In this document: piece by piece, positions 1,324 through 61,919 of the stretch
Numbering within the stretch: the first letter of the stretch is position 1
Layout: every line of letters starts with the position of its first letter
Assembly: GCA_036960615.1 (NCBI GenBank)
Contig: JBALXO010000004.1
Coordinates: 8,875 to 72,874, forward strand
Length of the DNA: 64,000 nt
Reading direction: 5' to 3'
DNA from: Cocleimonas sp.
Lineage (GTDB): Bacteria > Pseudomonadota > Gammaproteobacteria > Thiotrichales > Thiotrichaceae
Made by a program: the position numbers and the translations under genes
Notes under the pieces: model-generated
Told to the model about the DNA's origin: nothing
The model's database searches: none
What the model saw: the letters and a program-made list of their open reading frames with translations, nothing else

Positions 1324-1357
1324 GGGAAAAGTGCCAAAAAGGTAGGGGGGTGTCTTT
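1324..1357 (-). repeat. C-rich extragenic repeat, copy 1
   Basis: Minus strand reads AAAGACACCCCCCTACCTTTTTGGCACTTTTCCC. It lies 171 nt downstream of the glnN stop, in sense orientation. Confidence 0.9.
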
Positions 1358-1375
1358 ATATATACCTTCAAATAC

Positions 1376-1400
1376 AAAAAAAGACCGCCAAAGCAGTCTT
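1376..1400 (-). terminator. Rho-independent terminator downstream of glnN
   Basis: On the minus strand AAGACTGC-TTTG-GCGGTCTT forms an 8-bp stem (one G-U pair) followed by a T-run (plus-strand A-run 1376-1380). The equivalent plus-strand stem has a C-A mismatch. Confidence 0.6.
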
Positions 1401-1428
1401 TTCATATTCAATATTAATATTCAGGTTG

Positions 1429-1519
1429 CCCCTAGAGTTTGTGAGTTCAAGGCAGGGAATTAGGAGCTTACAAATGTAAGTAACTAAATCCCTAACGCCG
1501 AAATTGCAGACTCTAGGGG
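1429..1519. repeat. 91-nt imperfect long inverted repeat between the glnN stop codon and its terminator
   Basis: CCCCTAGAGT (1429-1438) pairs perfectly with ACTCTAGGGG (1510-1519). Internal arms partly pair (GGGAATTAGGAGCTTAC / GTAAGTAACTAAATCCC) around an apical CTTAC-AAAT-GTAAG hairpin. Confidence 0.6.
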
Positions 1520-1527
1520 TGAACTGA

Positions 1528-3699
1528 TTATTTAATATAGAGCATTTCTTGATATGTTGGTAACGGCCATAGATCATCAGCAACCACACTTTCAAGTGCA
1601 TCAACATTAGCACGCGCTTCATCCATCAAACTTCTGATAGTCTTTGCACAGAATTGCATATGCTCTTCTTCAGATCCATGATCTTCTTTAGCCATTGCAT
1701 CTTCAAGTTTACTTACTGCTGCCATCATGCCGTTGATATTTTCAGCGACACCTGCTGCTATGCTGTTATCCATTTCAATACCCATTTCAGACGCTGCTGT
1801 TGATGCCATTGCTAGGTCAGTTAGATAGCGTGTTGCTGCTGGGTAAATTGAGGTTTTAGTCATGTTAATAACAAGCTTAGCTTCAACTTCAATCGTTAGA
1901 ATATATTGCTCAGAATAAACGTCAAAACGACTCTCTAGCTCGACAGGTGATAAAACACCAGTGCTCGAAAACAGCTCTTTGATGCTAGCATCTTTAAGAT
2001 AAGGAAGCGCATCAGCTGTTGTAGGTAGATTTTTCAAACCACGCTTAACTGCTTCTTCATGCCATTCTGATGAGTAACCGTCACCGCCGAATACCGCTTG
2101 ACCATTATCAGTCATTAACTTCTTAAGCACAGCGATGGTTGCCGCTGTTGTATCACTATTACTCTTAAGCTCAGTTTCAAGCTCAGTCGCAATCCAGTTT
2201 AATGAATCAGCCAACATGGTGTTCATTGCAATCAATGGACCCGTTACTGATTGATCAGAACCTACTGCACGGAACTCAAAACGGTTGCCTGTAAATGCAA
2301 ATGGAGAGGTTCTATTACGATCACCAACATCTTTAGCGAATGGCATGATCTGCGAAAGCCCCATATCCATAACTCCGCCTTCACCAGCGTTATCTAGCTT
2401 GCCTTCTTTAATTTGATTAAATACGCCTTCGATCTGTGACCCAAGGTAAACTGATAAAATCGCTGGTGGCGCTTCATTAGCACCTAAACGATGATCATTA
2501 CCCGCTGTTGCGATAACTGCACGTAGTAATGGGCCAAATAAGTTAACACCACGAATTACTGCACCACAAAAGAGTAGGAAATTTAGGTTTTCATGAGGTG
2601 TTCTACCTGGGTCAAGTAAGTTACCTTGTGTGGCATTTCCTACAGACCAATTCACGTGTTTGCCAGAACCGTTAATGCCAGCAAATGGTTTCTCGTGCAT
2701 CAAACAAACAAAGCCATGTTTTTTTGCCGTGTTTTTAAAAACAGTCATTAATAACTGCTGATGATCAGCTGCGACGTTCGCCGCTTCATAATAAGGAGCA
2801 ATTTCAAACTGCCCTGGTGCTACTTCGTTGTGACGTGTTTTTGCTGGGATGCCTAAACGATAAAGTTGATCTTCCACATCTTGCATGAAAACCTGTACAC
2901 GAGGTGGAATTGCACCAAAATAATGATCATCAAATTCTTGACCCTTCGCTGGTGGTGCTCCGAATAAAGTACGACCCGCTAAAAGTAAGTCAGGACGAAG
3001 GTTTGCAAAGTTAGAATCAACTAGGAAATATTCTTGCTCAGCGCCACAACTTGAATTTAGTGTCGCAACATCTTCTTCGCCCATCAGTTTCAAAACTTTC
3101 TGTGCCGCATCGTTCATCGCTGAGTTTGAGCGTAATAGTGGTACTTTTTTGTCTAAAGATTCACCAGACCAAGAAATAAAGATGCACGGAATACATAAAG
3201 TTGCGCCGTTATCTGTTTGCATAATATATGCAGGACTGGTTGGATCCCATGCTGTATAACCACGAGCTGCATTAGTTACACGGATACTTCCGTTAGGAAA
3301 TGATGATCCGTCTGGCTCGCCTTTGATTAACAAGCTTCCAGTGAATTCTGTAATTGCTTTACCCGTAGAATCAGACACGATGAAACCATCATGCTTCTCT
3401 GCAGATGCGCCTGTCATTGGGTAGAAAATATGTGAGAAGTAATTAGCGCCTTTCGACATTGCCCAATCTTTCATCGCCGCTGCAATAACATCAGCCGTTC
3501 CAGCATCTAAAGCTTTTCCAGTTGCTACTGTTTTCTTGACCGCTTTAAAGGCTTTAGAAGACAATGCTTCTTCCATTTTTACTAATGTAAATACATCAGT
3601 AGCCCAAATTTTATCTAAAGGCTTAGGCTTCTTAACTGACATTGGCTCACTGTTAGTGATCTGAAAAATCGCTTGTGCGCGTGACTCACTTCCACTCAT
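1528..3699 (-). CDS. glnN: glutamine synthetase, type III (723 aa)
   Basis: The ~720-aa length is characteristic of type III GS. GS catalytic-domain motifs are present (EVAPGQFEI, NGSGKHVNWS, FEFRAVGS). A sigma-54 promoter lies upstream. Confidence 0.9.
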   Translation of the reverse strand: MSGSESRAQAIFQITNSEPMSVKKPKPLDKIWATDVFTLVKMEEALSSKAFKAVKKTVATGKALDAGTADVIAAAMKDWAMSKGANYFSHIFYPMTGASAEKHDGFIVSDSTGKAITEFTGSLLIKGEPDGSSFPNGSIRVTNAARGYTAWDPTSPAYIMQTDNGATLCIPCIFISWSGESLDKKVPLLRSNSAMNDAAQKVLKLMGEEDVATLNSSCGAEQEYFLVDSNFANLRPDLLLAGRTLFGAPPAKGQEFDDHYFGAIPPRVQVFMQDVEDQLYRLGIPAKTRHNEVAPGQFEIAPYYEAANVAADHQQLLMTVFKNTAKKHGFVCLMHEKPFAGINGSGKHVNWSVGNATQGNLLDPGRTPHENLNFLLFCGAVIRGVNLFGPLLRAVIATAGNDHRLGANEAPPAILSVYLGSQIEGVFNQIKEGKLDNAGEGGVMDMGLSQIMPFAKDVGDRNRTSPFAFTGNRFEFRAVGSDQSVTGPLIAMNTMLADSLNWIATELETELKSNSDTTAATIAVLKKLMTDNGQAVFGGDGYSSEWHEEAVKRGLKNLPTTADALPYLKDASIKELFSSTGVLSPVELESRFDVYSEQYILTIEVEAKLVINMTKTSIYPAATRYLTDLAMASTAASEMGIEMDNSIAAGVAENINGMMAAVSKLEDAMAKEDHGSEEEHMQFCAKTIRSLMDEARANVDALESVVADDLWPLPTYQEMLYIK

Positions 3700-3783
3700 T
3701 GGGTAACTCCTTAATAAACTTTAAATTTCTTTTAACTAAAATAGTATAATCTTCAGTGCGTTAGTATACGTAAGTATAATATA

Positions 3784-3799
3784 AGCAAAAGGTGTGCCA
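3784..3799 (-). promoter_or_regulatory. sigma-54 (-24/-12) promoter of glnN
   Basis: The minus strand reads TGGCAC-ACCTT-TTGCT, a perfect TGGCAC-N5-TTGC(A/T) match, ~85 nt upstream of the glnN ATG. Confidence 0.8.
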
Positions 3800-3933
3800 A
3801 GTATATGAGTGATAATTGTTTCTAAGTTCTGTTTATAAGCTAAGGATAAATAGCGTTTTTTTAGATAGTTTGTTTTATTTAATCTGAACAGTAATAACAT
3901 TTACGCACTAAATTACGGCAAATAGAGATTATA

Positions 3934-3950
3934 TGCACCTTATAAGTGCA
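3934..3950. promoter_or_regulatory. NtrC-like enhancer site (TGCACC-N5-AGTGCA)
   Basis: TGCACCTTATAAGTGCA is a 17-bp near-palindrome with TGCAC/GTGCA ends, like the NtrC consensus TGCACCnnnnnGGTGCA. It lies ~135-150 bp upstream of the sigma-54 promoter on the glnN side. Confidence 0.55.
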
Positions 3951-3972
3951 ATAAATTAGGTTTTACATAAGA

Positions 3973-4764: not shown

Positions 4765-4840
4765 GGGAAGGCTAGAATAATGCACAAAAACCATCACAAG
4801 CATCGCGAAACAATTATTTTAGCTTGCTCATTGGATGTAT

Positions 4841-4874
4841 TTAAAAAACACGTAAAAAGGTGGGGCTGTCTTTT
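4841..4874 (-). repeat. C-rich extragenic repeat, copy 2
   Basis: Minus strand reads AAAAGACAGCCCCACCTTTTTACGTGTTTTTTAA, 20 nt downstream of the M50-like gene stop, in sense orientation. Confidence 0.8.
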
Positions 4875-4893
4875 AATATAAAAACTAATGATA

Positions 4894-5574: not shown

Positions 5575-5631
5575 TTCATAAACAGTTATAATGAATTTAG
5601 GCCTTATATTATAACAGACAGAGCATTCATT

Positions 5632-6030: not shown

Positions 6031-6070
6031 TAAGAATTTCAATTTGCTAAAACTCAGCTTTCAACTGTAT

Positions 6071-6433: not shown

Positions 6434-6571
6434 TATTTGCCTAAATTCAAAAAGTTTTGTGGATTAAAAGTTCCATACTACTGACATCACATAGCCTTTA
6501 TCGGAAAATCATTAAGTATCAGCTACTATTTGATATAATCGAGTCAAATTCATGTTTTTCAAGGCAAATTT

Positions 6572-7189: not shown

Positions 7190-7255
7190 ATAAAGATTTA
7201 ATATTGATAACAGTAATCCGTATTAACCTCTTTTAAGTACTATAATTTACAAATT

Positions 7256-7291
7256 AAAAAGACACCCCCCTACTTATTGGCTGTTTCTGAC
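7256..7291 (+). repeat. C-rich extragenic repeat, copy 3 (left arm of convergent pair)
   Basis: AAAAAGACACCCCCCTACTTATTGGCTGTTTCTGAC, 67 nt after the DUF4124 gene stop. Confidence 0.9.
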
Positions 7292-7298
7292 TAGATTA

Positions 7299-7333
7299 GT
7301 AACAAACAGTGAAAAGTAGGGGGGTGTCTTTTT
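7299..7333 (-). repeat. C-rich extragenic repeat, copy 4 (right arm of convergent pair)
   Basis: Minus strand reads AAAAAGACACCCCCCTACTTTTCACTGTTTGTTAC, 30 nt after the pilD stop. Confidence 0.9.
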
Positions 7334-7362
7334 GTATTCTAAAAAAAATTAGGGTGTTAATC

Positions 7363-9596: not shown

Positions 9597-9610
9597 AACG
9601 TTTCCTATTA

Positions 9611-11559: not shown

Positions 11560-11724
11560 ATGAAATCGTATTTATGTATAGTATGTGGCCTTGTTTATGA
11601 CGAAGCAGAAGGCTGGCCAGACGATGGCATTGCACCAGGTACAAAGTGGGCAGATGTCCCAGAAGATTGGGAATGTCCAGATTGTGGCGTGGGTAAATCT
11701 GATTTTGAAATGCTTGAAATTTAA
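11560..11724 (+). CDS. rubredoxin (54 aa)
   Basis: Below the ORF-track size cut-off. My translation is [54 protein letters not shown], with the two CxxCG knuckles and the conserved aromatic residues of rubredoxins. Confidence 0.9.
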
Positions 11725-14019: not shown

Positions 14020-14038
14020 AACGTAATTAATAAATAAT

Positions 14039-14070
14039 AAAGACACCCCTACCTTTTTCCCTGTTTTCCC
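14039..14070 (+). repeat. C-rich extragenic repeat, copy 5
   Basis: AAAGACACCCCTACCTTTTTCCCTGTTTTCCC, 20 nt after the ruvB stop. Confidence 0.85.
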
Positions 14071-15509: not shown

Positions 15510-15540
15510 TAATTTAGCATTTATTCATTAGATAAAATTA

Positions 15541-15570
15541 AAAAACACCACAGCCTTTTGGGCTGTCTTC
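15541..15570 (+). repeat. C-rich extragenic repeat, degenerate copy (also a small hairpin)
   Basis: AAAAACACCACAGCCTTTTGGGCTGTCTTC aligns with copy 9 (AAAGACACCCCCCACCTTTTGGGCAC). ACAGCC/GGCTGT can pair. 32 nt after the acyltransferase stop. Confidence 0.5.
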
Positions 15571-15687
15571 AGTGCGACCCAACAAATTATCTCTCATTAT
15601 TTTATTGTGGGTATCGTTCTCACTCTTCTTGATTCCAGAGGAGTCTAAGTAAGCACTTTTTACCTAACACTGTGATAGCATTAAACT

Positions 15688-21525: not shown

Positions 21526-21554
21526 TAAGTAACTAAGCAGCTGTTTTATTCTTT

Positions 21555-21587
21555 AAAAAGACAACCCCACCTTTTTGCCACTTTTTC
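21555..21587 (+). repeat. C-rich extragenic repeat, copy 7
   Basis: AAAAAGACAACCCCACCTTTTTGCCACTTTTTC, 30 nt after the cpoB stop. Confidence 0.85.
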
Positions 21588-23213: not shown

Positions 23214-23237
23214 GATTTTTAATCAGTCTAAATATAT

Positions 23238-23272
23238 AAAAAGACACCCCCCACCTTTTTATCACTTTTTCC
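23238..23272 (+). repeat. C-rich extragenic repeat, copy 8
   Basis: AAAAAGACACCCCCCACCTTTTTATCACTTTTTCC, 25 nt after the DsbA-like gene stop. Confidence 0.9.
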
Positions 23273-25454: not shown

Positions 25455-25464
25455 CGTTAATAAC

Positions 25465-25498
25465 AAAGACACCCCCCACCTTTTGGGCACTTCTCGCC
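25465..25498 (+). repeat. C-rich extragenic repeat, copy 9
   Basis: AAAGACACCCCCCACCTTTTGGGCACTTCTCGCC, 11 nt after the yrfG stop. Confidence 0.9.
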
Positions 25499-26406: not shown

Positions 26407-26414
26407 AGTCCTGA

Positions 26415-28678: not shown

Positions 28679-28692
28679 AGTAATCGATTAAA

Positions 28693-28723
28693 TAGAAATA
28701 GGGAAAAGGTAGGGGGTGTCTTA
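28693..28723 (-). repeat. C-rich extragenic repeat, copy 10 (begins in the subtilase stop codon)
   Basis: Minus strand reads TAAGACACCCCCTACCTTTTCCCTATTTCTA. The leading TAA is the stop codon of the S8 protease gene. Confidence 0.85.
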
Positions 28724-29959
28724 TTTTATAAGAGAAAGCGCGCGACTAGCACTAATCAAACCATCACCATATTCTTGATCACGACCCGGCTTACCTAAAT
28801 CAACAGCCGTTCTTTTCAATATAGTATTAATGTTTTGATTACCTTTTCGAGATAAAAGTAAAGCGGCAACACCGCTAACATGCGCCGATGAAATAGACGT
28901 ACCGGTTGCTAATTTATATTTACCACCGGGAGCAATAGTTAAAATATTCACCCCTGGCGCTGCATAGTCAATGAAGCGACCTTTATCAGCCATATCAAAT
29001 AGCTTTTTATTTTGATCAACAGCCGTAGCCGTTAATACCCCGGGAATCAATGCGGGATAAATTGTACTTCCCCATTTGCCACCATTACCTGCTGCTGCAA
29101 CAACGATGATGCCCTTATTAACTGCTTTTTTAACCATTTTTTCTACTAATGAATCTTTGCCACCAGTAAAACTTAAATTGATCACATCTACATTACGTTG
29201 AATACAAGCATCTAGTGCCTTAGCAACATCTGAAGACGAACCTTTCAAATTATTTGGTCGACCTGCTTCAGCCTTAAATGCCCCAACTGCAAATAGTTTT
29301 GCCTTAGGAGCTATACCAATATGTTTATTTTGGCTTACCAGAACTCCTGCCACAGTGGTACCGTGAAGCATTGACGCAGGACTATTTTCATCAATATCAA
29401 ACAAATCTAGAGTTTCAATGAGCGCTTCTGATAGAGAAGGGTGGAAAATATCAACCGGTGTATCTACCATACAAATAGTAATACCTTTGCCTTTGGTAGT
29501 CTCGTGCACATAACTTACGCCAGTTTCATACATCGAATAAGCGTTAGTAAAGGTTGTTGCTGCTGGCTTATATATATTGTTGGTCGCCGCTTCAACTTCC
29601 TTTTCTTTTTGATTGATCGTTTTACTTAAACTAAGTGGATTTTGTCCTTTAGTTTTTGCAACCAACATTCCGGTATTAACAGAAGATAAAATAATTTTAC
29701 TGCTAGTCTCTAATCCATATTTATCGGCAATACTATTTACTGAATCACCCTTGTCAGCAGGATAAAGAAAAATAATTTCATCTTTTACAAAGTTAGTTCT
29801 TGGCGGTATTGGGCGATCTGGCTCGTAAACAAAATCAAAATAAAGCGGTTCCGAATCCTCATCTTCTATAAGATAATTTTGCGCACCGACAAAACTCACT
29901 AAAGTAGTGCTAAAAAGCGTGAGTAATACTTTATTTAAATTAAAATTCTTCACCAGCAA
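28721..29959 (-). CDS. secreted subtilisin-like serine protease (peptidase S8)
   Basis: Asp (ICMVDTPVD), His (HGTTVAGVL) and Ser (GTSISSAHVSG) triad blocks; N-terminal signal anchor and a pro-region. The start overlaps the anti-sigma stop by 20 nt. Confidence 0.85.
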   Translation of the reverse strand: MLVKNFNLNKVLLTLFSTTLVSFVGAQNYLIEDEDSEPLYFDFVYEPDRPIPPRTNFVKDEIIFLYPADKGDSVNSIADKYGLETSSKIILSSVNTGMLVAKTKGQNPLSLSKTINQKEKEVEAATNNIYKPAATTFTNAYSMYETGVSYVHETTKGKGITICMVDTPVDIFHPSLSEALIETLDLFDIDENSPASMLHGTTVAGVLVSQNKHIGIAPKAKLFAVGAFKAEAGRPNNLKGSSSDVAKALDACIQRNVDVINLSFTGGKDSLVEKMVKKAVNKGIIVVAAAGNGGKWGSTIYPALIPGVLTATAVDQNKKLFDMADKGRFIDYAAPGVNILTIAPGGKYKLATGTSISSAHVSGVAALLLSRKGNQNINTILKRTAVDLGKPGRDQEYGDGLISASRALSLIK

Positions 29960-31285: not shown

Positions 31286-31531
31286 TTACTGAGTGTTCTC
31301 TGTACAAAAAAATGTTCATAAAAGTTATACAAATTTTAAACATTAAAGATAATCGGCAATTTTACACTTTTGCATGAACCTTTACCAAGTCTATTAACAC
31401 ATACCCTGTGAGAGACGCTGATGATGGGCTTAATTGGTCAAAGGGGATTTTGTTTACCAATATAATAACTAACCAGATTAAAAAGGCGCTATAACGGTAG
31501 CTTCTTTTAAACCGGCTCCCTCGCAACTTTA

Positions 31532-31557
31532 GGCGGACTTTATGTCCGCTTTTTTTT
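31532..31557 (+). terminator. strong orphan Rho-independent terminator (plus strand)
   Basis: GCGGAC-TTTAT-GTCCGC followed by T8. There is no annotated plus-strand gene upstream for >2.8 kb. Confidence 0.7.
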
Positions 31558-33729: not shown

Positions 33730-33761
33730 AAAAGATACCCCTTATTTTTTGCCTATTTCTC
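33730..33761 (+). repeat. C-rich extragenic repeat, degenerate copy
   Basis: AAAAGATACCCCTTATTTTTTGCCTATTTCTC, 51 nt after the NlpC/P60 stop. Confidence 0.6.
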
Positions 33762-35764: not shown

Positions 35765-35800
35765 ATATATAATAATTAAGAAATCATTCTTAATTATATA

Positions 35801-35829
35801 AAAAAGCTCCGCTAGTCGGAGCTTTTTTA
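35801..35829 (+). terminator. Rho-independent terminator after rpmA
   Basis: AGCTCCG-CTAGT-CGGAGCT followed by a T-run. It is preceded by an 11-bp AT-rich hairpin at 35772-35797. Confidence 0.75.
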
Positions 35830-38235: not shown

Positions 38236-38259
38236 AAAAAACCCTCCTTTTTAGTGAGC
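38236..38259 (+). repeat. C-rich extragenic repeat, degenerate copy
   Basis: AAAAAACCCTCCTTTTTAGTGAGC, 33 nt after the proB stop. It keeps only the CCTCCTTTTT half of the element. Confidence 0.4.
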
Positions 38260-38368
38260 TTATCATTTTGTTTTTAAAAACGACTAACTCAATTATTTGC
38301 CTAAGCATTGACACTTTTCATTTATAATCATTCCATTATTCAAATAGCTCGTTTTCTAAAGGAAATTT

Positions 38369-39472: not shown

Positions 39473-39476
39473 TTTT

Positions 39477-39508
39477 AAAGACACCCACTACCTTTTTGCC
39501 TATCCTTC
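39477..39508 (+). repeat. C-rich extragenic repeat, copy 13
   Basis: AAAGACACCCACTACCTTTTTGCCTATCCTTC, 5 nt after the stop of the coiled-coil protein gene. Confidence 0.85.
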
Positions 39509-39512
39509 GGTT

Positions 39513-42962: not shown

Positions 42963-44183
42963 ATGTTCCGACTATTTAAGAAAAAAAAGCCGAGCGATGA
43001 ATCAGTTAGTAAAGACCTCGTTGAAAATCTAGTTGAAGATCTCGCGGACGACGATAAAGTCGACCAACTTGACAATGAAATCAGTGCTGATATTAAAACA
43101 GAACTAGATACGCATATCGAAGTCGATGGGATCCAAAATTTAGAACCTCAAGCTACAGAAGAAGTTCCTGTAAGTATTGAAAATAAGCCTGAAGTAGAAA
43201 TGACTACAGAGGCTATCGTAGAAGCTGAAGTGCAACTTGCACAAGAGCAACCAGAAAAGAAAGGGCTTTTTCAACGCTTAAAATCTGGCCTAGCTAAAAC
43301 CAGTAATACCTTAACCGAAGGCATGAGTTCTTTAGTGTTAGGTAAGAAAAAAATAGACGAAGAAGTACTAGAAGAATTAGAAACTCGTTTGTTAATGGCT
43401 GATGTTGGGATGGAAGCGACTCAACGTATTATCAACGACTTAACGCAACGATCTTCGCGCAATGAACTCAATGATGTCGACGCCCTAATGGCCGCCTTGA
43501 ATGACGAAATGGTCAAGATTCTACGTCCTGTATCAAAACCTTTAGATTTAGATGACGTCGATGGCCCTGCTGTAATTCTAATGGTTGGCATTAATGGCGC
43601 AGGAAAAACGACTACAATAGGAAAACTTGCTAAACAATTTCAAAATGATGGTATGTCCGTCATGCTGGCAGCAGGTGACACTTTCCGAGCAGCAGCAGTT
43701 GAGCAGTTACAAGTATGGGGCGAGCGCAATGATATTCCTGTGGTTGCACAAGGCACTGGTGCTGATAGTGCTTCGGTTATTTACGATGCGATGGAATCAG
43801 CCAAGGCAAAAAATATAGATATCCTTTTAGCAGACACCGCTGGACGTTTGCACACTCAAACCAACTTAATGGAAGAACTAAAAAAAGTTAAGCGTGTAAT
43901 GCAAAAAATAAATCCTGATGCACCTCATGAAATTATGCTGATTGTTGATGCAAGCATTGGACAAAATGCCTTAGTGCAAGCTAAAGAGTTTGATGCAGCA
44001 TTAGGCTTAACAGGTATTACAGTCACTAAATTAGACGGTACAGCAAAAGGTGGAATATTATTTGCAATGGCAGAAAAAACAGGTATTCCAGTCAGGTTTA
44101 TAGGCGTTGGAGAATCTATAGATGATTTACAAGAGTTTGATGCTTACGAATTTACGGGTGCTTTACTTGCAAACGAAGACTAA
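42963..44183 (+). CDS. ftsY: signal recognition particle receptor
   Basis: Acidic N-terminal A domain, then the NG domain (GINGAGKTTTIGKLA, DTFRAAA, DTAGRL, TKLDGTAKGG). Confidence 0.95.
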   Translation: MFRLFKKKKPSDESVSKDLVENLVEDLADDDKVDQLDNEISADIKTELDTHIEVDGIQNLEPQATEEVPVSIENKPEVEMTTEAIVEAEVQLAQEQPEKKGLFQRLKSGLAKTSNTLTEGMSSLVLGKKKIDEEVLEELETRLLMADVGMEATQRIINDLTQRSSRNELNDVDALMAALNDEMVKILRPVSKPLDLDDVDGPAVILMVGINGAGKTTTIGKLAKQFQNDGMSVMLAAGDTFRAAAVEQLQVWGERNDIPVVAQGTGADSASVIYDAMESAKAKNIDILLADTAGRLHTQTNLMEELKKVKRVMQKINPDAPHEIMLIVDASIGQNALVQAKEFDAALGLTGITVTKLDGTAKGGILFAMAEKTGIPVRFIGVGESIDDLQEFDAYEFTGALLANED

Positions 44184-44341
44184 TTAACCGCTCTATTTAC
44201 ATCAATATCCTATGGCTTGTTTATTGAAGATATAAGTTCATACGATACGGTAACAGCAACTCAGTTACTTATTCAAAATATTTAGTTGCCACATAATTTC
44301 TCATTATTAATACATATGAGACTGCTTGCAGTAATTATTCG

Positions 44342-44761
44342 ATGAATTCCGAAAACATTAAAAAAATAGCATACACCGACAAAGAGCTGAATAATAAAGG
44401 GCTTCGATATAAACAGTTACAAGAGTTTGACACTGAAGTTAACTGGAGTGGATTAGTTGAGTTAATTGTACGCCACTACGTTGAATCCGGTATTGGTATG
44501 CTAAAAGTACCTGTAGAAACTATGATTCGAGTATATTTTTTGCAATTAAGATATAACCTTAATGCTCGTGAAGCAGCTATCGCTTTATCCAAAATCGATG
44601 TCTTAAGAAATTTTGCGATAATCAACATTAAAACTGATGTTTTGCCTGAAGAAGATTCCATCGACACTTTTAGATCTCTTGTTGAATTAACCGATCTAGC
44701 AAATAAATTTTCAGCTGCTTTTAATATTCAACCCATGAAACAAATAGTCAAAGAGGTTTAA
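44342..44761 (+). pseudogene. IS5/IS1182-like transposase remnant (N-terminal InsH-type domain only, 139 aa)
   Basis: W..L..LI.......G....P.ETMIRVYFLQLRYNLNAREAAIAL......RNF......LPEEDSIDTFRSLV matches the pattern of the transposase InsH N-terminal domain. There is no DDE catalytic domain and I recognised no terminal inverted repeats. Confidence 0.6.
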
Positions 44762-44763
44762 TA

Positions 44764-46365
44764 TTATCTTTTGATTGCCATCTGAATACCGTCCCATACC
44801 TTTTGGCTAATTTCAGTATTACCCAGAAATCGAACAATGATTGATTTACCGTTTTTCTCGAAATCAGGATTCTGGGCAGCGATCTCTTTAAGTTCGCGTT
44901 TGGCTTTAATATTATCACCCAATTGCGTATATGCGATACATCGAAAAATGCAGCCGTTCATTAATCCTGGCGCAACTATTTTCTCAGCCTCCATTAATGC
45001 CTTTTTATATTTTTCTTCTCGGTAATAAGCTAAAGATAAAATCATATGATACCAAGAGGGATAATTATTAGACATATTCATCGCTTTTTTGACTAAGGGT
45101 AGTCCTTCGTCCCATCTGTTCATGAGACAGAAAAAGAATCCACATGCATATTCTATAACTGCGTTAAATTTGTTAATACTCCTGGTAATGCGGAATTCCT
45201 CTAAGCATCGATCCCATTCACCTTGGCTGAATAATATTTGGCCTAAAGTAAAATGCGCCTCATGTGAATCCTGACGTAAATGAATTGCTCTTTCTGCATA
45301 TCGCAACCCTTTATCTAATGATGACTCGATTAAATTGAAGTTATGAACATAGTCTCTACGACAAAGATCAGACATCAAAATATTTGCAATAACATCATCA
45401 GAATTCCTTTCTAGCGAAGACTCACCAGCTTCAATAGCTTTAGCAAGTGTCTCAGAATTTAAAGTGTCGTAAAATTGCCTATAATAAGCGAAGACTTTCA
45501 ATTTATCAGGGATATTATCTTTATTCAGCAACAATACTCTAGCCCAGTCCAAAAGGAGCTTGCCTTGATGAATATCAACAATAGTGGTTATGATTCTTGC
45601 AAATATATTTTCTTGATCCAACAATGGGATTTCAGATTGTATTTCGAAGCTTTCAGACCAAACTACCTCTTCTTTAACATCTGTTAAGCGGCAAAGTAAT
45701 TCATATTTGCCTTTTGTGAGATCCTGCATATATAAATATAATCTATATACTGAATCTATCTCTTGATGCATGCTTGATGATTCGCACTTATCGGAATAAG
45801 GATTAAAAACGACAAATTTAGTAAGAACAAAATTACTAAGTTCTTTAGCCAAACAATCAGTCGTTCGAAGTAGTAAACGATTACTAAGCTTACTTTGTGT
45901 TACGTCAGTGAAACTAACTAAAGCAATTTTTGGGCCAGAAGACGCTTCTATTTCAGCGCTTTCACGCTTAAAATCTGTTCTGTTAAAATTTGAATTTACG
46001 GAACACCTTATTAAATCCGGCGTATATGTCCCCTTTGGGATTGTAATGACAACCTTATTATCATCCGTATTGTTATAAAACTCATTTAAACGTTTACGGA
46101 CTCTACCACCCATAATTCTTACAACAGGATTACTGTCAGAATCAAAATCGTCAGGCAAATCTAAAGCTTCAACACCAATTGTGTATTGCTTTAGCAGTTT
46201 GCCTTCACCGACAAGTGTTTTTTTAACTACGTACTCTAGGAAATGCTTCATCTGTTTCGCAGAGTTAAAATAAATGCTCGCTAGGATTGTTGCTAATTGG
46301 TTTTCAACTAATTGCTTTTCTTCCTCACTCATTTCTGATGGAACTAGACGTTTATCAGCCTCCAT
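44764..46365 (-). CDS. TPR-repeat protein with a conserved N-terminal regulator-like domain
   Basis: The C-terminal ~200 aa are TPR-like. The N-terminal ~120 aa (ILASIYFNSAKQMKHFLEYVVKKTL...YTIGVEAL..PDDFDSDSNPVVRIMGGRVRKRLNEFY...ITIPKGTYTPD) resemble, from memory, the domain preceding TPRs in some cyclase/regulator proteins. Confidence 0.6.
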   Translation of the reverse strand: MEADKRLVPSEMSEEEKQLVENQLATILASIYFNSAKQMKHFLEYVVKKTLVGEGKLLKQYTIGVEALDLPDDFDSDSNPVVRIMGGRVRKRLNEFYNNTDDNKVVITIPKGTYTPDLIRCSVNSNFNRTDFKRESAEIEASSGPKIALVSFTDVTQSKLSNRLLLRTTDCLAKELSNFVLTKFVVFNPYSDKCESSSMHQEIDSVYRLYLYMQDLTKGKYELLCRLTDVKEEVVWSESFEIQSEIPLLDQENIFARIITTIVDIHQGKLLLDWARVLLLNKDNIPDKLKVFAYYRQFYDTLNSETLAKAIEAGESSLERNSDDVIANILMSDLCRRDYVHNFNLIESSLDKGLRYAERAIHLRQDSHEAHFTLGQILFSQGEWDRCLEEFRITRSINKFNAVIEYACGFFFCLMNRWDEGLPLVKKAMNMSNNYPSWYHMILSLAYYREEKYKKALMEAEKIVAPGLMNGCIFRCIAYTQLGDNIKAKRELKEIAAQNPDFEKNGKSIIVRFLGNTEISQKVWDGIQMAIKR

Positions 46366-46552
46366 TTTTGGTTAACCTCGAGCCAACTTTTTCTTGCACA
46401 ACTATTAAATATATTTTAGAGCTTGATAGTTATAGTCTATCAAGACGATATATTCATAATTAGTTTATTTTTTGTAAAATTAATTATTTGACCATGCCTA
46501 GAGTAATCTATTTGAACTTTTGATAGCACTACTTTGCATTATATTTTCTATA

Positions 46553-47665
46553 TCAGTAAGCAAAAATATCAACATCTATACCTGTTTCTCTAATACTATC
46601 AGCTCTTGCTGAAATATATCTTTGAAAATTGGCTTCAGTTTTATAAGCACCCGACAATACATAATCGAAGACTGATTGAACATGAAAAGTTCTTAATTGA
46701 GTATCGACACGCATAATTTGACTGCCATCATTATTGAAGAAAATCATTGCAGGTAAATATTCCACGCCTAAATCTGTTGCCCATTGTTTAGCCGTTGTAT
46801 TATCACCATTGGGAGTTATCAACTTGATATCTGAATAACGATCTAGTTGGACTGCTATAAATTTTTCGACTAAAGCTAAAGTAGTTTCATCTTCTAAAGT
46901 TTTTTGATGAAGTAAATCACAATTTTCACAGTTTTCAGCTTCAAAAAAAACAGCTGTATATTTATCATCCGAATCTTGGATGTTTCTTCTGTCAAGATTA
47001 AAAGCTGGGGTAATAAAAAAGTCTTGTTTATTCAACCCTGACTTGGTTTTAGGGATTATATTTTTATTTTCTATCATAGAAAATTCACTAAATTTAACGC
47101 TTTTCTCATGCTTCCCAGAAACATAATTCATACTTTTTTGAAAGTTCTCTATGGGAACATACCCATTAAGTTGATGTATGATTTTTCGATTCTCATCAAA
47201 GAATAATAATGTTGGGGTGTATTTAATACCAAGGGCTTCAGCAAAGCTTTTTTCACTGTAGGCGGTGCCACCAACATTAACTATTTCACGATCACCCCAC
47301 ATATTTAAAGCAACTATATCGAAGTTTTGCCGAAACTCATCCACGACTTTTTGATCAGCAAAATTATCATCCCATAACTGATCACAATAGGGACAACCAG
47401 GTTGCCAAAAATAAACAACTAAGCGTTTTTTATTTTCTGTTGCTTCAGCAATATCTTCTTCAAGATCTAAAAAACTTTCTTTGAACCAAGTAGGATGAGT
47501 AGCATCTTTCGCACCACGGAATTCACCTACTTTTTCAATATGAGCAGCTTTTACCTCTACCTTATTTTCATCTGCAATGACCACAGCTTGACCACAAAAA
47601 CAAAATAACAATAGTGTCAGAATAAACTTAGTTACTGTAATCATTCCTATCCTCATCTTTAACAT
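46553..47665 (-). CDS. periplasmic protein with two thioredoxin-like domains
   Basis: Signal peptide. First domain has WQPGCPYCDQLW (CxxC) and the second has EAENCENCDLL (CxxC). Confidence 0.72.
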   Translation of the reverse strand: MLKMRIGMITVTKFILTLLLFCFCGQAVVIADENKVEVKAAHIEKVGEFRGAKDATHPTWFKESFLDLEEDIAEATENKKRLVVYFWQPGCPYCDQLWDDNFADQKVVDEFRQNFDIVALNMWGDREIVNVGGTAYSEKSFAEALGIKYTPTLLFFDENRKIIHQLNGYVPIENFQKSMNYVSGKHEKSVKFSEFSMIENKNIIPKTKSGLNKQDFFITPAFNLDRRNIQDSDDKYTAVFFEAENCENCDLLHQKTLEDETTLALVEKFIAVQLDRYSDIKLITPNGDNTTAKQWATDLGVEYLPAMIFFNNDGSQIMRVDTQLRTFHVQSVFDYVLSGAYKTEANFQRYISARADSIRETGIDVDIFAY

Positions 47666-47792
47666 AATTTATCTCATCTAATTGTATATATACCGAAATT
47701 AATATACATAATAATTCAAGAAGCTCAGATTGCGTTCAGAGATAATATGGGTAAACTGTATCGCTCAAACGGGCATAAAATCAAAACTTATA

Positions 47793-48440
47793 ATGATTGA
47801 ATTTAAAACAGTCAGCAAACAATATCCAACAGGGCAATTGGCGTTATATAACGTTAACGTACAGTTGCAACAAGGAGAAATGGCTTTTTTAACAGGCCAT
47901 TCTGGTGCTGGCAAAAGTACCTTATTGAAGCTCATTGCATTACTCGACAAACCTTCAAAGGGTGAAGTCATCGTAGCTGGACAGAATACGCAAAAAATTA
48001 AGCCACGTAAAATTCCCGCATTTCGCCGCAATATCGGCATGATTTTCCAAGACCATCATTTACTTGCAGATCGTACTGTTTTTGACAATATTGCCTTACC
48101 TTTAAAAATTGAAGGTATGCGACCACAAGATATTAAACGAAGAGTTCGTGCTGCTTTAGATAAAGTTAATCTGTTAGAAAAAGAAAAACAATATCCCCAA
48201 ATGCTATCTGCAGGTGAAAAACAACGTATTGGGATTGCACGTGCAGTGGTCAATAAGCCTGCAATAATTTTAGCAGATGAGCCTACAGGAAATCTCGACC
48301 CTGATCTTGCAACTGATATTATGCATACTTTTAAGCAGTTCAATGATTACGGCTCTACAGTATTAATTGCCAGCCATGACCACGCACTGATTAAAGAGAT
48401 GAAAAAGCGCATCATCGTTTTACGTAAGGTCAAAACCTAA
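47793..48440 (+). CDS. ftsE: cell division ABC transporter ATP-binding protein
   Basis: MIEFKTVSKQYPTG... is collinear with E. coli FtsE (FLTGHSGAGKSTLLKLI, IGMIFQDHHLL, LSAGEKQRIGIARA, LADEPTGNLD). The track's TTG start at 47730 adds 21 residues with no FtsE counterpart. Confidence 0.93.
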   Translation: MIEFKTVSKQYPTGQLALYNVNVQLQQGEMAFLTGHSGAGKSTLLKLIALLDKPSKGEVIVAGQNTQKIKPRKIPAFRRNIGMIFQDHHLLADRTVFDNIALPLKIEGMRPQDIKRRVRAALDKVNLLEKEKQYPQMLSAGEKQRIGIARAVVNKPAIILADEPTGNLDPDLATDIMHTFKQFNDYGSTVLIASHDHALIKEMKKRIIVLRKVKT

Positions 48441-50162: not shown

Positions 50163-50177
50163 TTGAAGTTCCAGCTA

Positions 50178-50209
50178 GGAATAGCCAAAAAGGTAGGGGG
50201 TGTCATTTT
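50178..50209 (-). repeat. C-rich extragenic repeat, copy 14 (left arm of head-to-head pair)
   Basis: Minus strand reads AAAATGACACCCCCTACCTTTTTGGCTATTCC. On the plus strand it is the G-rich arm that can pair with copy 15. Confidence 0.85.
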
Positions 50210-50275
50210 ATTGTTTAATAACTGAATCAAAAACTCCCCGCCCATAACCCATATACAACATACGAAAATAACGAT

Positions 50276-50311
50276 AAAAATGACACCCACCACCTTTTTA
50301 TGAGTTTTTAC
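50276..50311 (+). repeat. C-rich extragenic repeat, copy 15 (right arm of head-to-head pair)
   Basis: AAAAATGACACCCACCACCTTTTTATGAGTTTTTAC, 114 nt after the tauE-like stop. Confidence 0.85.
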
Positions 50312-50417
50312 AAAACTCACCCTTTGGGTAATTGTCTCTACGCTCCAACATTATCTCACTAGCTCGGCTGAAACTTTCTACCAAAACATTGATCTAGATC
50401 CATAAATTATTCTGTTT

Positions 50418-50445
50418 CTTGAATAGTATTAGCTTGTCCATATCT
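50418..50445 (+). promoter_or_regulatory. sigma-32 (RpoH)-like heat-shock promoter of clpB
   Basis: CTTGAAT-N13-CCATATCT compared with the consensus CTTGAAA-N13-15-CCCCATNT, ~70 nt upstream of the clpB ATG. Confidence 0.55.
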
Positions 50446-53144: not shown

Positions 53145-53170
53145 TTTGTAAATATGGTAAAAAATAGATG

Positions 53171-53199: not shown

Positions 53200-53264
53200 T
53201 AGTAGAGCTATTTTCGAAAGGTAAGTGCCGGAGAAGGTCGAAACATTGCACTGATATATTATAT

Positions 53265-53297
53265 AAAGACACCCCCCTCCTTTTTGCCTGTTTTAAA
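53265..53297 (+). repeat. C-rich extragenic repeat, copy 16
   Basis: AAAGACACCCCCCTCCTTTTTGCCTGTTTTAAA, 121 nt after the clpB stop. It abuts the zapD stop codon on the other strand. Confidence 0.9.
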
Positions 53298-56856: not shown

Positions 56857-56859
56857 CTA

Positions 56860-59051: not shown

Positions 59052-59144
59052 CTGTAGAAAATGAATAACTAGCGATAACTTTACTATAAGTCATATGAAG
59101 TGAATAATAGAATTTTTTAGTCATCCATCTAATAAAGGCATAAC

Positions 59145-60050
59145 ATGCTTTACTCTCAACTACCTCCTTTAAATTCTATTAAAGCCTTTGATGCGGTTGT
59201 CAGGCATGGTTCGATCAGTGAGGCTGCGAGAATACTTTTCGTTAGTCAAAGCGCCGTAAGTCGACATATTATTAAATTAGAAGACTTTTTAGGCAGCCAA
59301 TTGTTATATCGCGGTAAACAAGGTGCATCCGTGACCAAAGAAGGACAAGAGTTTTTTGACCGTATTAGTCATTCATTAAACGGAATTTTAGATGCAACAG
59401 TCAATATCAAGGCTACTCAGTCAGGTGTGAATATTGTCAGGGTCAGCTCATTATCAAGCTTTGCCTTAAAATGGTTTGTACCAAAACTCAGCATATTTCA
59501 ATCGCTTCATCCTGATATTATTTTAGATATATCTATTGCCGATGACTTGCCTGACTTTGAATATAGCCAAAAAGACTGCGCAATAGTCTCTCAACAGCGT
59601 AATTTATTTGATATACATACTGAAGAACTTTTTGAAGAAGAGCTCATCGTCGTAGCCTCTCCTTCAATGTTAATAAAATCAACGATTACAGAACCAGACC
59701 ATTTAATAGGCATTCCTTTAATCCATACAACTTCTCGCCCAGAGTTATGGCATCTTTGGAATGATCAAAACAACTCAGCAAGTGATGACGCACTTGTTGG
59801 TCTCACCTTTCAAGATTTTTATATTTCAATAGCGGCTTGTGTTGCTGGCAGTGGTGTTGGGCTCATACCTTCTTTTTTAGTCAAACAAGAGCTTGAAAAT
59901 AAAACATTGGCTCAACCTCTAAAACAATCATTAAAGACGGGCAAACATTATGGTATTGCTATTTCCCCTTCCAGAAAAAAGAACGATGCCGTTATTGCTT
60001 TTCGTGATTGGTTAATAAAAGAAACTGCCAACGAAAGTACTAATCCTTAG
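59145..60050 (+). CDS. LysR-family transcriptional regulator
   Basis: N-terminal HTH LNSIKAFDAVVRHGSISEAARILFVSQSAVSRHIIKLE. Divergent from the aminotransferase operon. Confidence 0.9.
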   Translation: MLYSQLPPLNSIKAFDAVVRHGSISEAARILFVSQSAVSRHIIKLEDFLGSQLLYRGKQGASVTKEGQEFFDRISHSLNGILDATVNIKATQSGVNIVRVSSLSSFALKWFVPKLSIFQSLHPDIILDISIADDLPDFEYSQKDCAIVSQQRNLFDIHTEELFEEELIVVASPSMLIKSTITEPDHLIGIPLIHTTSRPELWHLWNDQNNSASDDALVGLTFQDFYISIAACVAGSGVGLIPSFLVKQELENKTLAQPLKQSLKTGKHYGIAISPSRKKNDAVIAFRDWLIKETANESTNP

Positions 60051-60125
60051 CTCTTATCTCTTTTTAAATAACTATATTTCAGCTAAATAGCTAAATATGT
60101 ACTAAATTTATTTAATGGAGAAATT

Positions 60126-60542
60126 ATGAAAAAAAGTGCAGGCAGTTGTTTATGCGGCGAAGTACATTACGAAATCACAGGTAGCCTAGGGGTATTCCAA
60201 TACTGTCATTGTTCACGTTGTCGAAAATTTACTGGCAGCGCACATGCAGCAAATATCATTGTAGCACCAGATCAATTTGAATGGATTGAAGGTGAAGAGT
60301 TTTTAGGTCGGTTTGAAGTAAAAGGTGCACGACATTTTGCTACATCTTTTTGTTCTCAATGTGGTTCGTCGATGCCTTGGAAGGCACAAAGCGGTAAGGC
60401 AGTTATCATTCCAGCAGGAACTCTAGACGATGATCCAGATATTCGTCCATTCCAGAATATCTTTTATGGCTCAAAAGCTGAGTGGTACCAAGAAGCGAGT
60501 GACTTGATTAAATACGATGAACTGCCAACCAAAAAATGTTGA
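60126..60542 (+). CDS. GFA-family (CENP-V/glutathione-dependent formaldehyde-activating-like) zinc protein
   Basis: CLCGEV...CHCSRCRK...CSQCGS cysteine pattern of the GFA family, 138 aa. Confidence 0.82.
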   Translation: MKKSAGSCLCGEVHYEITGSLGVFQYCHCSRCRKFTGSAHAANIIVAPDQFEWIEGEEFLGRFEVKGARHFATSFCSQCGSSMPWKAQSGKAVIIPAGTLDDDPDIRPFQNIFYGSKAEWYQEASDLIKYDELPTKKC

Positions 60543-60590
60543 TATTGAATTAGCAAAAGACAAATACCTTAGTCAGTCTTCTTATTATAA

Positions 60591-60627
60591 AAAATGAAAA
60601 CAGCCAAAAAGGTGGGGGGTGTCTTTT
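60591..60627 (-). repeat. C-rich extragenic repeat, copy 17
   Basis: Minus strand reads AAAAGACACCCCCCACCTTTTTGGCTGTTTTCATTTT, 57 nt after the folE2 stop, in sense orientation. Confidence 0.9.
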
Positions 60628-60683
60628 CAGTCTTTCAAATGGGTTTAATCATAATTCCATTTGAAATAAATAAGTATAAGTAA

Positions 60684-61658
60684 TCAGTGTGGGAACTCAC
60701 GAGGGTCGTCTCGGTAACCGCCATCAACGCCTTTGGTTACAATAGCAACAGCATCATGAGGATGCAGGCTTTCTAAGTGATTTACTCGAACCCAAAAGTC
60801 TTCAAAGTGTTGATCATTAACTAATATCGCTTGCACACGACGAGCCGCATCTTCACAGAACATTAAGTTAGCAGCATTTAATCTGGCAAATTCTTGTTCG
60901 TCTTCACGCTTTACAGCAGCTTGTACCGGCGTAGCCAAAGCATCTTCGACTTTGTCTATTAGAGCTGAAATTGGAATGTCTTTTACTTGATCAGAAAGTC
61001 TCACTCGAACTTGAGCAATACTCCGTTGGCTATGTGGAGTCGCCGAAATACCTTCAGTTGTGCCAAGCCAAGCATGAACTGTTGCAAGATCAACATCGCC
61101 ACTTTCACCAAACTTATCTTGGAAGCCCTGCTGGATAATATCGCGCGCTAATGCCGCCGAACATGGACAAGTCGACGAGTAAGGAATCTCAATACTTAGC
61201 TCAGTTGATATTTCACCTTGGCGAACACTGGATGAAATGCGCGTTTTATAACTTTTCCAACCCGTATTATCACTAATCAGTGAATCGCGACGTTCAAAAA
61301 ATTGTAAACGACACTCGAGGTAGGCGCTGTCGCTAATGCCTTCTTGCGATTCTGCAAAATGAGTTACAACTTCTTTCAATAATGCTGGTGTGATGGTGTG
61401 ATCGCTTAAGATCTGATCAATCACCAAATACAAACGCGACATGTGAATGCCTTTCGCTTTGGGGTCAGTCAAATTTACATAGGCTTGAACGCTAGCAACC
61501 GTCTGAATCTGCTGACCTTTACCATTAAGGACATGCACTGGCAGTTCGATCTCGCTCATTCCTACCCAATTTAGTGTGGCATTTGGGCCAGAATGTGGTT
61601 CGTTAGCTATGTCAGGTAAATCGCAGTTATTGTCATCACAACTTTCAGTGGTACTCAT
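60684..61658 (-). CDS. folE2: GTP cyclohydrolase I type 2 (FolE2 / GCYH-IB)
   Basis: LPDIANE......L.WVGMSEIELPV and GIHMSRL...SSTCPCSAALAR... blocks are typical of FolE2. Confidence 0.85.
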   Translation of the reverse strand: MSTTESCDDNNCDLPDIANEPHSGPNATLNWVGMSEIELPVHVLNGKGQQIQTVASVQAYVNLTDPKAKGIHMSRLYLVIDQILSDHTITPALLKEVVTHFAESQEGISDSAYLECRLQFFERRDSLISDNTGWKSYKTRISSSVRQGEISTELSIEIPYSSTCPCSAALARDIIQQGFQDKFGESGDVDLATVHAWLGTTEGISATPHSQRSIAQVRVRLSDQVKDIPISALIDKVEDALATPVQAAVKREDEQEFARLNAANLMFCEDAARRVQAILVNDQHFEDFWVRVNHLESLHPHDAVAIVTKGVDGGYRDDPREFPH

Positions 61659-61885
61659 GGTAAATCCTGAATCTATTCTATAATAGATAATGTAATAGGT
61701 AGTTTAATAAATAATTCAACTCAAATTAGTCGATAAATTATACAGAAAGGCGACTGTACCAGCTATAAAATAATAGTTAAGTGACCTTAGGTGCTACTAT
61801 GGGGTTGATAATGACAAATTCCAAGGCTTAACACCTTGATTTATTTGATCAATCTTCATGTAAGCAATACTGAGCATGAAATCAT

Positions 61886-61919
61886 GAAAAACCATTGAAA
61901 AGGTAGGGGGTGTGCTTAT
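61886..61919 (-). repeat. C-rich extragenic repeat, copy 18 (in a divergent promoter region)
   Basis: Minus strand reads ATAAGCACACCCCCTACCTTTTCAATGGTTTTTC. It lies between the folE2 and moxR starts, with no upstream co-oriented gene. Confidence 0.75.

Follow-up and report, generated by a model that had tools for sequence, protein, structure and literature searches.

The window analysed here is a stretch of 64,000 nucleotides from Cocleimonas sp. (contig JBALXO010000004.1, positions 8,875 to 72,874 of the forward strand), with a GC content of ~39% and with 90.4% of its length coding. Between its genes recurs a 35-nt, non-palindromic, C-rich repeat, for which the label C-box is coined here. 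It is present about once per 3.6 kb, in 15 clear and three degenerate copies, every one of them intergenic. The layout is (T)WAAAAA-GACACCCCCC(T)ACC-TTTTT-N5-TTTT, and the window consensus from all copies with their flanks reads aaaGACACCCCCC(T)ACCTTTTT-N5-TTTT. The C-box is a genuine repeat family, limited to a Cocleimonas clade of the Thiotrichaceae, and, as far as could be checked in Rfam and by a literature motif search, it has not been described before. The copies in the window, found either with a position weight matrix (PWM) or by eye, are the following.

1327-1361, minus strand (anchor 1354): C-box copy, GACACCCCCCTACC-T5-GGCAC-T4; PWM, 29.8 bits; tandem gap, sense, 173 nt 3' of the stop of a glnN-like gene
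4844-4878, minus strand (anchor 4870): C-box copy with a weak core, GACAGCCCCACC; PWM, 19.7 bits; convergent gap, 23 nt 3' of the stop of an M50-peptidase gene
7254-7335, both strands: facing inverted pair between convergent genes, made of 7254-7288 on the plus strand (anchor 7261) and 7301-7335 on the minus strand (anchor 7328); long hairpin with A5/T5 flanks
14034-14068, plus strand (anchor 14042): C-box copy; PWM; tandem gap, sense, 22 nt 3' of the ruvB stop
15540-15570, plus strand: degenerate copy, A6-CACCACAGCC-T4-GGGCTG-TCTTC; by eye; 3' of an acyltransferase gene
21552-21586, plus strand (anchor 21561): C-box copy, GACAACCCCACC; PWM; convergent gap, 35 nt 3' of the cpoB/ybgF stop
23236-23270, plus strand (anchor 23243): consensus copy; PWM, 49.6 bits; convergent gap, 3' of a dsbA-like gene
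25461-25495, plus strand (anchor 25468): C-box copy; PWM; tandem gap, sense, 13 nt 3' of the stop of a HAD-hydrolase gene
28693-28727, minus strand (anchor 28720): C-box copy; PWM; takes up an entire 42-nt convergent gap, its core beginning immediately past the TAA stop of an S8-protease gene
33730-33761, plus strand: degenerate copy, AAAAGATACCCCTTA-T6-GCCTA-TTTC; by eye; convergent gap
38236-38301, plus strand: degenerate core A6-CCCTCC-T5, fused directly to a module called famC; by eye; tandem gap, sense
39473-39507, plus strand (anchor 39480): C-box copy; PWM; takes up a 40-nt convergent gap
50177-50211, minus strand (anchor 50204): antisense copy, half of a back-to-back pair; PWM; 25 nt 3' of the stop of a TauE-like gene; absent from the orthologous site in the related loci L160 and L206
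50275-50387, plus strand (anchor 50282): sense copy at 50275-50309, followed by a module called famB to 50387; PWM; upstream of the clpB promoter
53261-53295, plus strand (anchor 53268): C-box copy, CCCCCCTCC variant; PWM; convergent gap between clpB and zapD
60596-60630, minus strand (anchor 60623): consensus copy; PWM, 50.2 bits; convergent gap, 60 nt 3' of the stop of folE2 (GCHY-1)
61887-61921, minus strand (anchor 61914): copy without the leading GA, CACACCCCCTACC; PWM; divergent gap or within a doubtful 65-aa open reading frame (ORF)

The PWM has 35 columns and was trained on copies from other contigs only. Fifteen window sites reach 16.6-50.2 bits with it, while the top score in locally shuffled sequence is 0.0; the three degenerate copies were recognised by eye in gaps without a clear copy. 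PWM and reading of the gaps together reproduce the 15 clear and three degenerate copies, in the range 1324-61919, that had been reported from inspection of the letters alone (the sequence-only reading). If at most one mismatch is allowed, the window has 10 occurrences of the string GACACCCCCC, where 0.62 would be expected; this count is reached in 0 of 100 shuffles. None of the 15 PWM sites lies inside a called gene, and the degenerate copies likewise lie outside, so the family is indeed dispersed and strictly intergenic in the window; with 90.4% coding sequence, the chance of all 15 copies landing between genes is ~5e-16. Scores of a PWM for the core are distributed bimodally. All 12 matches of at least 14 bits are full intergenic elements, and in ~56 kb of coding sequence there is no match of 9 bits or more.

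The family extends beyond the window. Scanning metagenome contigs with a 20-base pattern gave at least 120 loci (423 kb), most of which come from a single GenBank metagenome project; several of the loci listed are orthologues of segments of the window, at ~80% nucleotide identity. The ClpB protein of the window is also found on Saanich Inlet metagenome contigs, and its CpoB/YbgF protein shows 100% identity to an NCBI protein labelled "MAG: Cocleimonas sp.", in agreement with an origin in the Thiotrichaceae. A fuzzy search for the core returned 207 copies (193 unique) in 487 kb, and 0 in the reversed-sequence control. By crude gene calling, 187 of the 193 unique copies (metagenome loci listed plus the window) are intergenic. 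Four of the six flagged as coding are ORF-calling artefacts and the other two are doubtful: in L161 a sulfatase domain starts just past the element, and the match in L171 is without flanks and lies on an unrelated-looking contig. Among genome contigs, a 14-base pattern, which is unspecific, gave chance single matches in unrelated taxa only. Rfam contains no family for the C-box or for the associated modules famB, famC and famD (window at the gathering threshold, 11 repeat-rich loci at E <= 0.1). Searching the literature for the motif on both strands gave unrelated eukaryotic and primer matches only, and nothing on repeats was found in the literature mentioning Cocleimonas. Failure to place the element in any named repeat family, already conceded in the sequence-only reading, thus persists.

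The logo of 182 unique copies reads (T)(W)AAAAA GACACCCCCC ACC TTTTT R-NNN-G TTTT(T). Conservation amounts to 85-100% in the core, 92-100% in the C-run, 88-100% in T-tract 1 and 80-91% in T-tract 2, the last of which was not included in the search pattern. The 5 bases between the T-tracts are near background, and nothing is conserved outside the 35 nt. Comparison of 20-kb loci of relatives, centred on cpoB or zapD, distinguishes four dialects over nine loci, and these dialects track lineages.

Window, metagenome set, L245 and L246: GACAC6(T)ACC-T5-N5-T4
L243, L244 and L249: (T)GACAC6-7(T/C)AC-T4-5
L240, the cultured Cocleimonas flava: AGCCAC6TAC-T3-N7-T4-6
L241 and L251: TATGGCAC7-8-T7-GAWGATTG

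No copies were seen in three more distant loci, L247, L248 and L250 (Leucothrix-like). Where the C-box is present, the starts of its T-tracts remain 10 nt apart despite changed lengths, as in T5-N5-T4 in the window and T3-N7-T5 in C. flava. That the phase is kept while tract and spacer lengths change points to a helical-phase constraint on DNA, and recognition of the duplex is thereby favoured.

Up to six lineages have a copy in corresponding 3' gaps, namely those after ruvB and after the acyltransferase, cpoB, dsbA and HAD genes, and the one that separates the S8-protease gene from the coproporphyrinogen-oxidase gene. The post-ruvB site holds a copy in L131, L244, L243 and L241 as well. The site after the acyltransferase gene has an intact copy, in the dialect of the respective lineage, in L244, L240, L241 and L245. 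The post-cpoB gap is occupied on the plus strand in L243 and L244 and on the minus strand in L240, L241 and L246. Between lineages the spacer from stop codon to element is unalignable and the 5-nt tail differs at most positions; downstream promoter segments align. A fixed core with phased tracts amid drifting spacers and flanks argues for either purifying selection or a homogenising drive.

The distribution over types of intergenic gap is strongly uneven. In the window a copy is present in 9/9 convergent gaps (those of at least 42 nt; eight clear copies, one degenerate), in 6/19 tandem gaps and in 1/11 divergent gaps (chi-square p = 1e-4), in line with the concentration at gene 3' ends noted previously. 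One copy per convergent gap is usual. It had also been stated that 16 of 18 copies lie downstream of a co-oriented stop codon. The count was reproduced, at distances of 0-173 nt, but 10 of these 16 copies are in convergent gaps, where orientation is uninformative because either orientation satisfies the rule. Nor is the co-oriented stop significantly nearer to the copy in convergent gaps (17 vs 9, p = 0.17).

About 80% of copies are single and ~20% occur in inverted pairs, and the two classes fold very differently. Single copies have a mean minimum free energy (MFE) of -0.78 kcal/mol for core plus tail, with 123 of 182 at ~0; seven window copies folded with flanks give -0.5 to -6.3 kcal/mol (z -1.75 to +1.2). 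The sole self-complementarity of a single copy is AAAAAG/CTTTTT around a loop of 11-13 nt, so the description of the element as no palindrome, with merely this weak stem, was accurate. The facing pair at 7254-7335, by contrast, reaches -47.3 kcal/mol (z = -9.5) and has A5 and T5 flanks; it is predicted to be a bidirectional intrinsic terminator. A GC-rich hairpin followed by a U-tract is found in inverted pairs only, single copies having the U-tract without the hairpin. Two ways of deriving structure for single copies were rejected. They are not decayed pairs, as a partial inverted partner is present in just 2-3 of 147, the same as in controls. Nor is a hairpin between the C-run and a G-rich tail a family trait: the tail is G-enriched and the observed mean MFE compares with -0.38 kcal/mol in controls, and a C5/G5 stem is present in 2/5 C. 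flava copies, yet only ~12% of copies reach -3 kcal/mol.

Canonical terminators are as scarce in the window as had been suspected: three 20-kb blocks have 19, 24 and 18 terminator-like sites, and shuffles give 16.1, 16.4 and 14.5, which is no enrichment. Strong hairpins with T-tracts were seen in the intergenic DNA of the window only at 1378-1403 (minus strand), 31531-31551 (plus strand) and 35800-35828 (plus strand). The first of these lies ~25 nt upstream of the C-box copy at 1327-1361, so both signals can coexist. In the C-box-free relatives L247 and L248, canonical terminators are not clearly enriched either. As a separate observation, the post-pal terminator of L248 (9957-9976, plus strand) reads GCACCCC-AAAAAA-GGGGTGC, then ATTTTT, and resembles two facing minimal cores; it could be a relic, a precursor or a coincidence.

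The reading favoured here, tentatively and with less than even confidence, is that the C-box is a 3'-boundary element maintained by selection and read at the DNA level, similar to the repetitive extragenic palindromic (REP) sequences and bacterial interspersed mosaic elements (BIMEs) of other bacteria, with inverted pairs doubling as terminators. In such a mechanism, a sequence-specific reader would keep the element intact through selection or homogenising drive. This reader would most likely recognise double-stranded DNA, with a 13-bp core, GACAC6(T)ACC, flanked by an A-tract on one side and by two T-tracts one helical turn apart on the other. It is envisaged as a protein that acts on DNA, perhaps by bending it. 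At the ends of transcription units, the C-box might then act as an architectural or boundary site, as REP/BIME do in E. coli, and the outcome could be termination, insulation or topological buffering. Facing copies would form a canonical bidirectional hairpin terminator, while a single copy would provide the reader site and the T/U tracts only. The reading is favoured because of the differential constraint within the element, its conservation in place, the dialects and the phasing, and also because single copies are unstructured, orientation in convergent gaps is arbitrary, the pair forms a hairpin, copies are biased towards 3' ends and canonical terminators are not enriched. The mosaics that the C-box forms with other repeat modules resemble BIMEs.

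Several points weigh against a DNA-read boundary element. To our knowledge, no genome-wide sequence-specific boundary protein exists in bacteria apart from the REP/BIME binders, and the C-box reader is one that we infer. The orientation of copies in tandem gaps is a further difficulty. In the window there are six sense copies and one antisense copy. Pooling of the window with nine loci of eight relatives that have precomputed gene calls, and leaving out the back-to-back pair 50204/50282 of the window, gives a sense:antisense ratio of 18:4 (p = 0.004). For the metagenome loci listed, for which a crude ORF caller was used, the ratio is 38:17, 27:11 and 21:7 as the ORF-length filter tightens; in the same loci, sense copies lie a median of 32 nt past the stop codon, and antisense copies lack this proximity. 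Sense bias and stop proximity are more readily explained by a role in RNA. To accommodate them, a DNA-level model has to assume in addition that the complex is polar or that the G-rich strand, which resembles a Shine-Dalgarno sequence, is selected against in mRNA. The preference is ~3-4:1 and follows no strict rule, since 20-30% of tandem-gap copies are antisense and copies occur in divergent gaps too. Strand specificity as first proposed therefore holds as a real bias in tandem gaps and fails as a strict property, convergent gaps being uninformative in this respect.

An RNA-level role could be that of a 3'-untranslated-region element, a protein-binding or RNA-stability element of this sort having been among the suggestions of the sequence-only reading. 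Its G-free, C-rich tract and U-tracts would either load Rho or another C-binding factor, or block 3'-to-5' exonucleases and so, with no hairpin involved, define and stabilise the 3' end of the mRNA. Rho binds poly(C) in preference to other ligands, and RNase II is slowed by clusters of C. The sense bias, the position of sense copies just past stop codons and the scarcity of canonical terminators all speak for this explanation, which is nevertheless rated as rather unlikely. Some 20-30% of informative copies are antisense, some are in divergent gaps, and most convergent gaps are served by a single copy in arbitrary orientation. The C-rich tract is far below the length of a Rho-utilisation (rut) site: C enrichment is confined to the 13-nt core, the flanks having C at ~0.15-0.25 and G at ~0.1-0.25, and C does not exceed G over any longer stretch. 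Moreover, the loose specificity of Rho and exonucleases leaves the 97-100% conservation of the 13-nt core, the dialects and the 10-nt phase of the T-tracts unexplained. The rut-like signal suggested in the sequence-only reading is consequently graded weak; its sense RNA is C-rich and G-poor as described, but the tract spans ~16-28 nt and the core is too specific.

A second set of points against the boundary reading concerns dispensability and turnover. Three convergent gene pairs without a C-box abut, with gaps of 2, 8 and 40 nt (44762-44763, 26407-26414 and 6031-6070), from which it follows that the element is not indispensable. Nothing but the element occupies the gaps at 28679-28720 and 39473-39512; it is thus the spacer itself, and the 9/9 occupancy, which in part reflects this, is no proof of indispensability. 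Gaps of 2, 8 and 40 nt leave no room for any terminator, and this suggests that much transcription there ends within the opposing gene or needs Rho. Between relatives, copies turn over and flip orientation, as illustrated by the post-cpoB copy, which L240, L241 and L246 have on the other strand. Two insertions precede clpB in the window, one of ~95 nt with an extra antisense copy and one of famB, and L160 and L206 have neither. The tail GGCAC is found 13 times against 0.4 expected, a ~30-fold excess. Turnover and the GGCAC excess point to some copy-and-paste history.

The modules that accompany the C-box are part of this picture. The ~75-nt famB (...CGCCCTTCGGGTCGTCGTCACTRCGTTCCAACGTTGTCTCGC...) follows 31 of the 193 copies in the same orientation. 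Its copy in the window is an insertion bracketed by ACAAAAC...CCAAAAC, and since the orthologous site in L160 and L206 is without famB, it behaves like a miniature transposon; a short hairpin within famB shows compensatory changes between copies. The second module, famC (..ACGTTTTGTTGTTTAAAACG..GAATTTATGCA), is fused directly to T-tract 1 of the C-box in place of the usual tail, in ~7% of copies. A further module observed in the same mosaic arrays, famD (..CTACTACCTCCTTG.TCCTAGG..TAAGGAGGCA-like hairpin), has a search signature that performs no better than the control. Their sites are listed below.

famB: window 50300-50387 (plus strand); L123, L132, L152, L162, L188, L194, L225 and L230; L243 near 17150
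famC: window 38253-38301 (plus strand); L243 near 13780; L126, L140, L153, L157, L158, L161 and L209
famD: window 15619-15656 (plus strand); L136, L142, L165 and L193

Alternatively, the C-box may be selfish, spreading by copy-and-paste as REP/REPINs or miniature transposons do, with a transposase supplied in trans; the host would tolerate it in 3' spacers alone and gain no function from it. Convergent gaps that consist of the element alone, next to pairs that abut when it is absent, agree with insertion, as do gains, losses and orientation flips between relatives that are ~82% identical, the GGCAC excess, and the fixed junctions with the mobile-looking famB and famC. Inverted pairs and mosaic clusters are likewise known from REP/BIMEs, and the G-rich strand carries GT(A/G)G, as GTAG or GTGG, in most dialects, although it has no stem to precede it and is absent from the L241 dialect. 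We consider this explanation unlikely, all the same. A stable palindrome is missing from single copies. In 530 kb enriched for the element, 600 ORFs gave 0 matches to a REP-associated tyrosine transposase (RAYT), by phmmer and by a scan for HUH and Y motifs, a weak test given its E. coli YafM query; the same ORFs include no transposase and no multi-copy family that resembles one. For the REP-like RAYT target raised in the sequence-only reading, neither a stable palindrome nor, among these ORFs, a candidate enzyme was seen. The core is fixed while the 5-nt spacer is free, and orthologous copies are intact amid change-saturated flanks; neutral insertions would decay with their flanks, so these copies count against a purely selfish element.

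A homogenising drive of another type would be exerted by DNA uptake. If the C-box were an uptake signal, akin to the uptake signal sequences (USS) of Haemophilus or the DNA uptake sequences (DUS) of Neisseria, type IV pilus machinery would prefer DNA that carries the motif, and biased uptake with recombination would spread and homogenise it, pairs being co-opted as terminators. The resemblance in architecture is striking: in Haemophilus USS, too, As come first, then a core, then two T-tracts in helical phase (PMC3458573). Lineage dialects are known for the DUS of Neisseriaceae (PMC3630211), and in both Neisseria and Pasteurellaceae inverted pairs of uptake sequences form A/T-flanked terminators that are concentrated in tail-to-tail gaps (PMC1852404). 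The motif is also homogenised in place at orthologous sites and is equally numerous on the two strands. The window encodes pilBCD, and viral contigs gave 0 matches, a result of little information. Against this stands coding DNA: there is no genuine coding copy of the C-box and no excess of core-like sites there, as opposed to 1302 of 2000 H. influenzae USS (~65%) that lie within genes (PMC3458573). Furthermore, gaps made of the element alone fit insertion better than a drive acting on point mutations, and uptake would give no reason for a sense bias in tandem gaps. The uptake-like signal of the sequence-only reading is therefore matched in its architecture and contradicted in its distribution, and we regard it as improbable, if worth keeping in view. 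Its more specific form, in which uptake signals would have evolved independently a third time, now in marine Thiotrichaceae and for the first time outside Neisseriaceae and Pasteurellaceae, the C-box being intergenic only because the full 35-bp architecture is demanded, is held to be slightly less probable still.

Three further candidate functions were considered and rejected. The C-box is not a promoter: GACA lies 17 nt upstream of NGTTTT, neither a hexamer resembling a -10 box nor a conserved -35 region is present, and the copies in convergent gaps point towards gene ends. TGGCAC-N5 is not a sigma-54 site, as no TTGC follows and GGCAC is present in a minority of tails. Mimicry of the anti-Shine-Dalgarno sequence, an earlier suggestion, was dropped because CCTCC is found in only 2/18 copies, the consensus being CACC or TACC.

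Some observations concern the surroundings. The block at 44001-48000 has a GC content of 0.335-0.344, compared to ~0.39 elsewhere, and, as had been noted, no C-box; with only three gaps of useful size, this absence is not significant alone. The region 5' of clpB contains a sigma-32-like promoter, CTTGAA-N14-CCATATCT, at 50418-50445 (plus strand); it is conserved in both L160 and L206, which fits heat-shock control of clpB. The 532 nt that form a "divergent" gap between pilB and ruvC contain a 54-aa rubredoxin gene at 11560-11724 (plus strand), which ORF lists with a 90-aa cut-off miss. L191, L240, L243 and L244 conserve this gene, and Pfam Rubredoxin is annotated in L243-L246 and L248. The 120 element-bearing metagenome loci listed (L120-L239, 423 kb) contain 0 tRNA genes, where ~5 would be expected by a rough estimate. 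This may be an assembly artefact, with contigs breaking at repeats, or avoidance.

A near-invariant core amid drifting spacers and flanks, lineage dialects, and occupation of every sufficiently long convergent gap in the window form a pattern of conservation and distribution that requires a sequence-specific reader. If the reader is an uptake machinery, recognition of self-DNA would extend to a new bacterial family. If it is a DNA- or RNA-binding factor at gene ends, the boundaries of transcription units would be marked independently of hairpins. With its own dialect, the cultured relative Cocleimonas flava makes the question experimentally accessible.

Among known systems, rut sites share with the C-box a C-rich, G-poor and unstructured sense RNA, but they extend over ~60-80 nt rather than ~16-28 nt and lack the consensus and dialects that the C-box has. 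Intrinsic terminators correspond to the facing pairs, with their long GC-containing stem and A5/T5 flanks, and single copies also end in a T/U tract 0-60 nt past stop codons; in contrast to terminators, however, ~80% of C-box copies are single and form no hairpin, and it is sequence, not structure, that is conserved. Correia, BOX, ERIC and other miniature inverted-repeat elements are similarly dispersed, intergenic and modular. The C-box is far shorter, its inverted termini are limited to AAAAAG/CTTTTT (6 bp) and it has no visible target-site duplication; famB behaves more like this class than the C-box does.

The closest parallels are with uptake sequences and REP/BIME. In common with USS/DUS, the C-box has an A5-core-T5-N5-T4 layout with phased tracts on one side, dialects, pairs that are predicted terminators, and common intergenic singles. 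Its core is longer (13 bp vs 9-12 bp), coding copies and core-like excess are absent, its density is lower (1 per 3.6 kb), and it is biased to the sense orientation in tandem gaps. With the REP/BIME of Enterobacteria and Pseudomonas it shares a length of ~35 nt, probably hundreds of copies, an extragenic location biased to 3' ends and convergent gaps, occurrence as singles and inverted pairs, mosaic clusters with other short modules, and a lineage-specific sequence. A REP unit, on the other hand, is an imperfect palindrome with a stable stem-loop, whereas the single C-box is without a GC-rich palindrome and has two phased T-tracts with a free spacer. Known short extragenic repeats are normally either palindromes, such as REP, or gene-invading uptake signals, such as USS/DUS; the C-box is neither.

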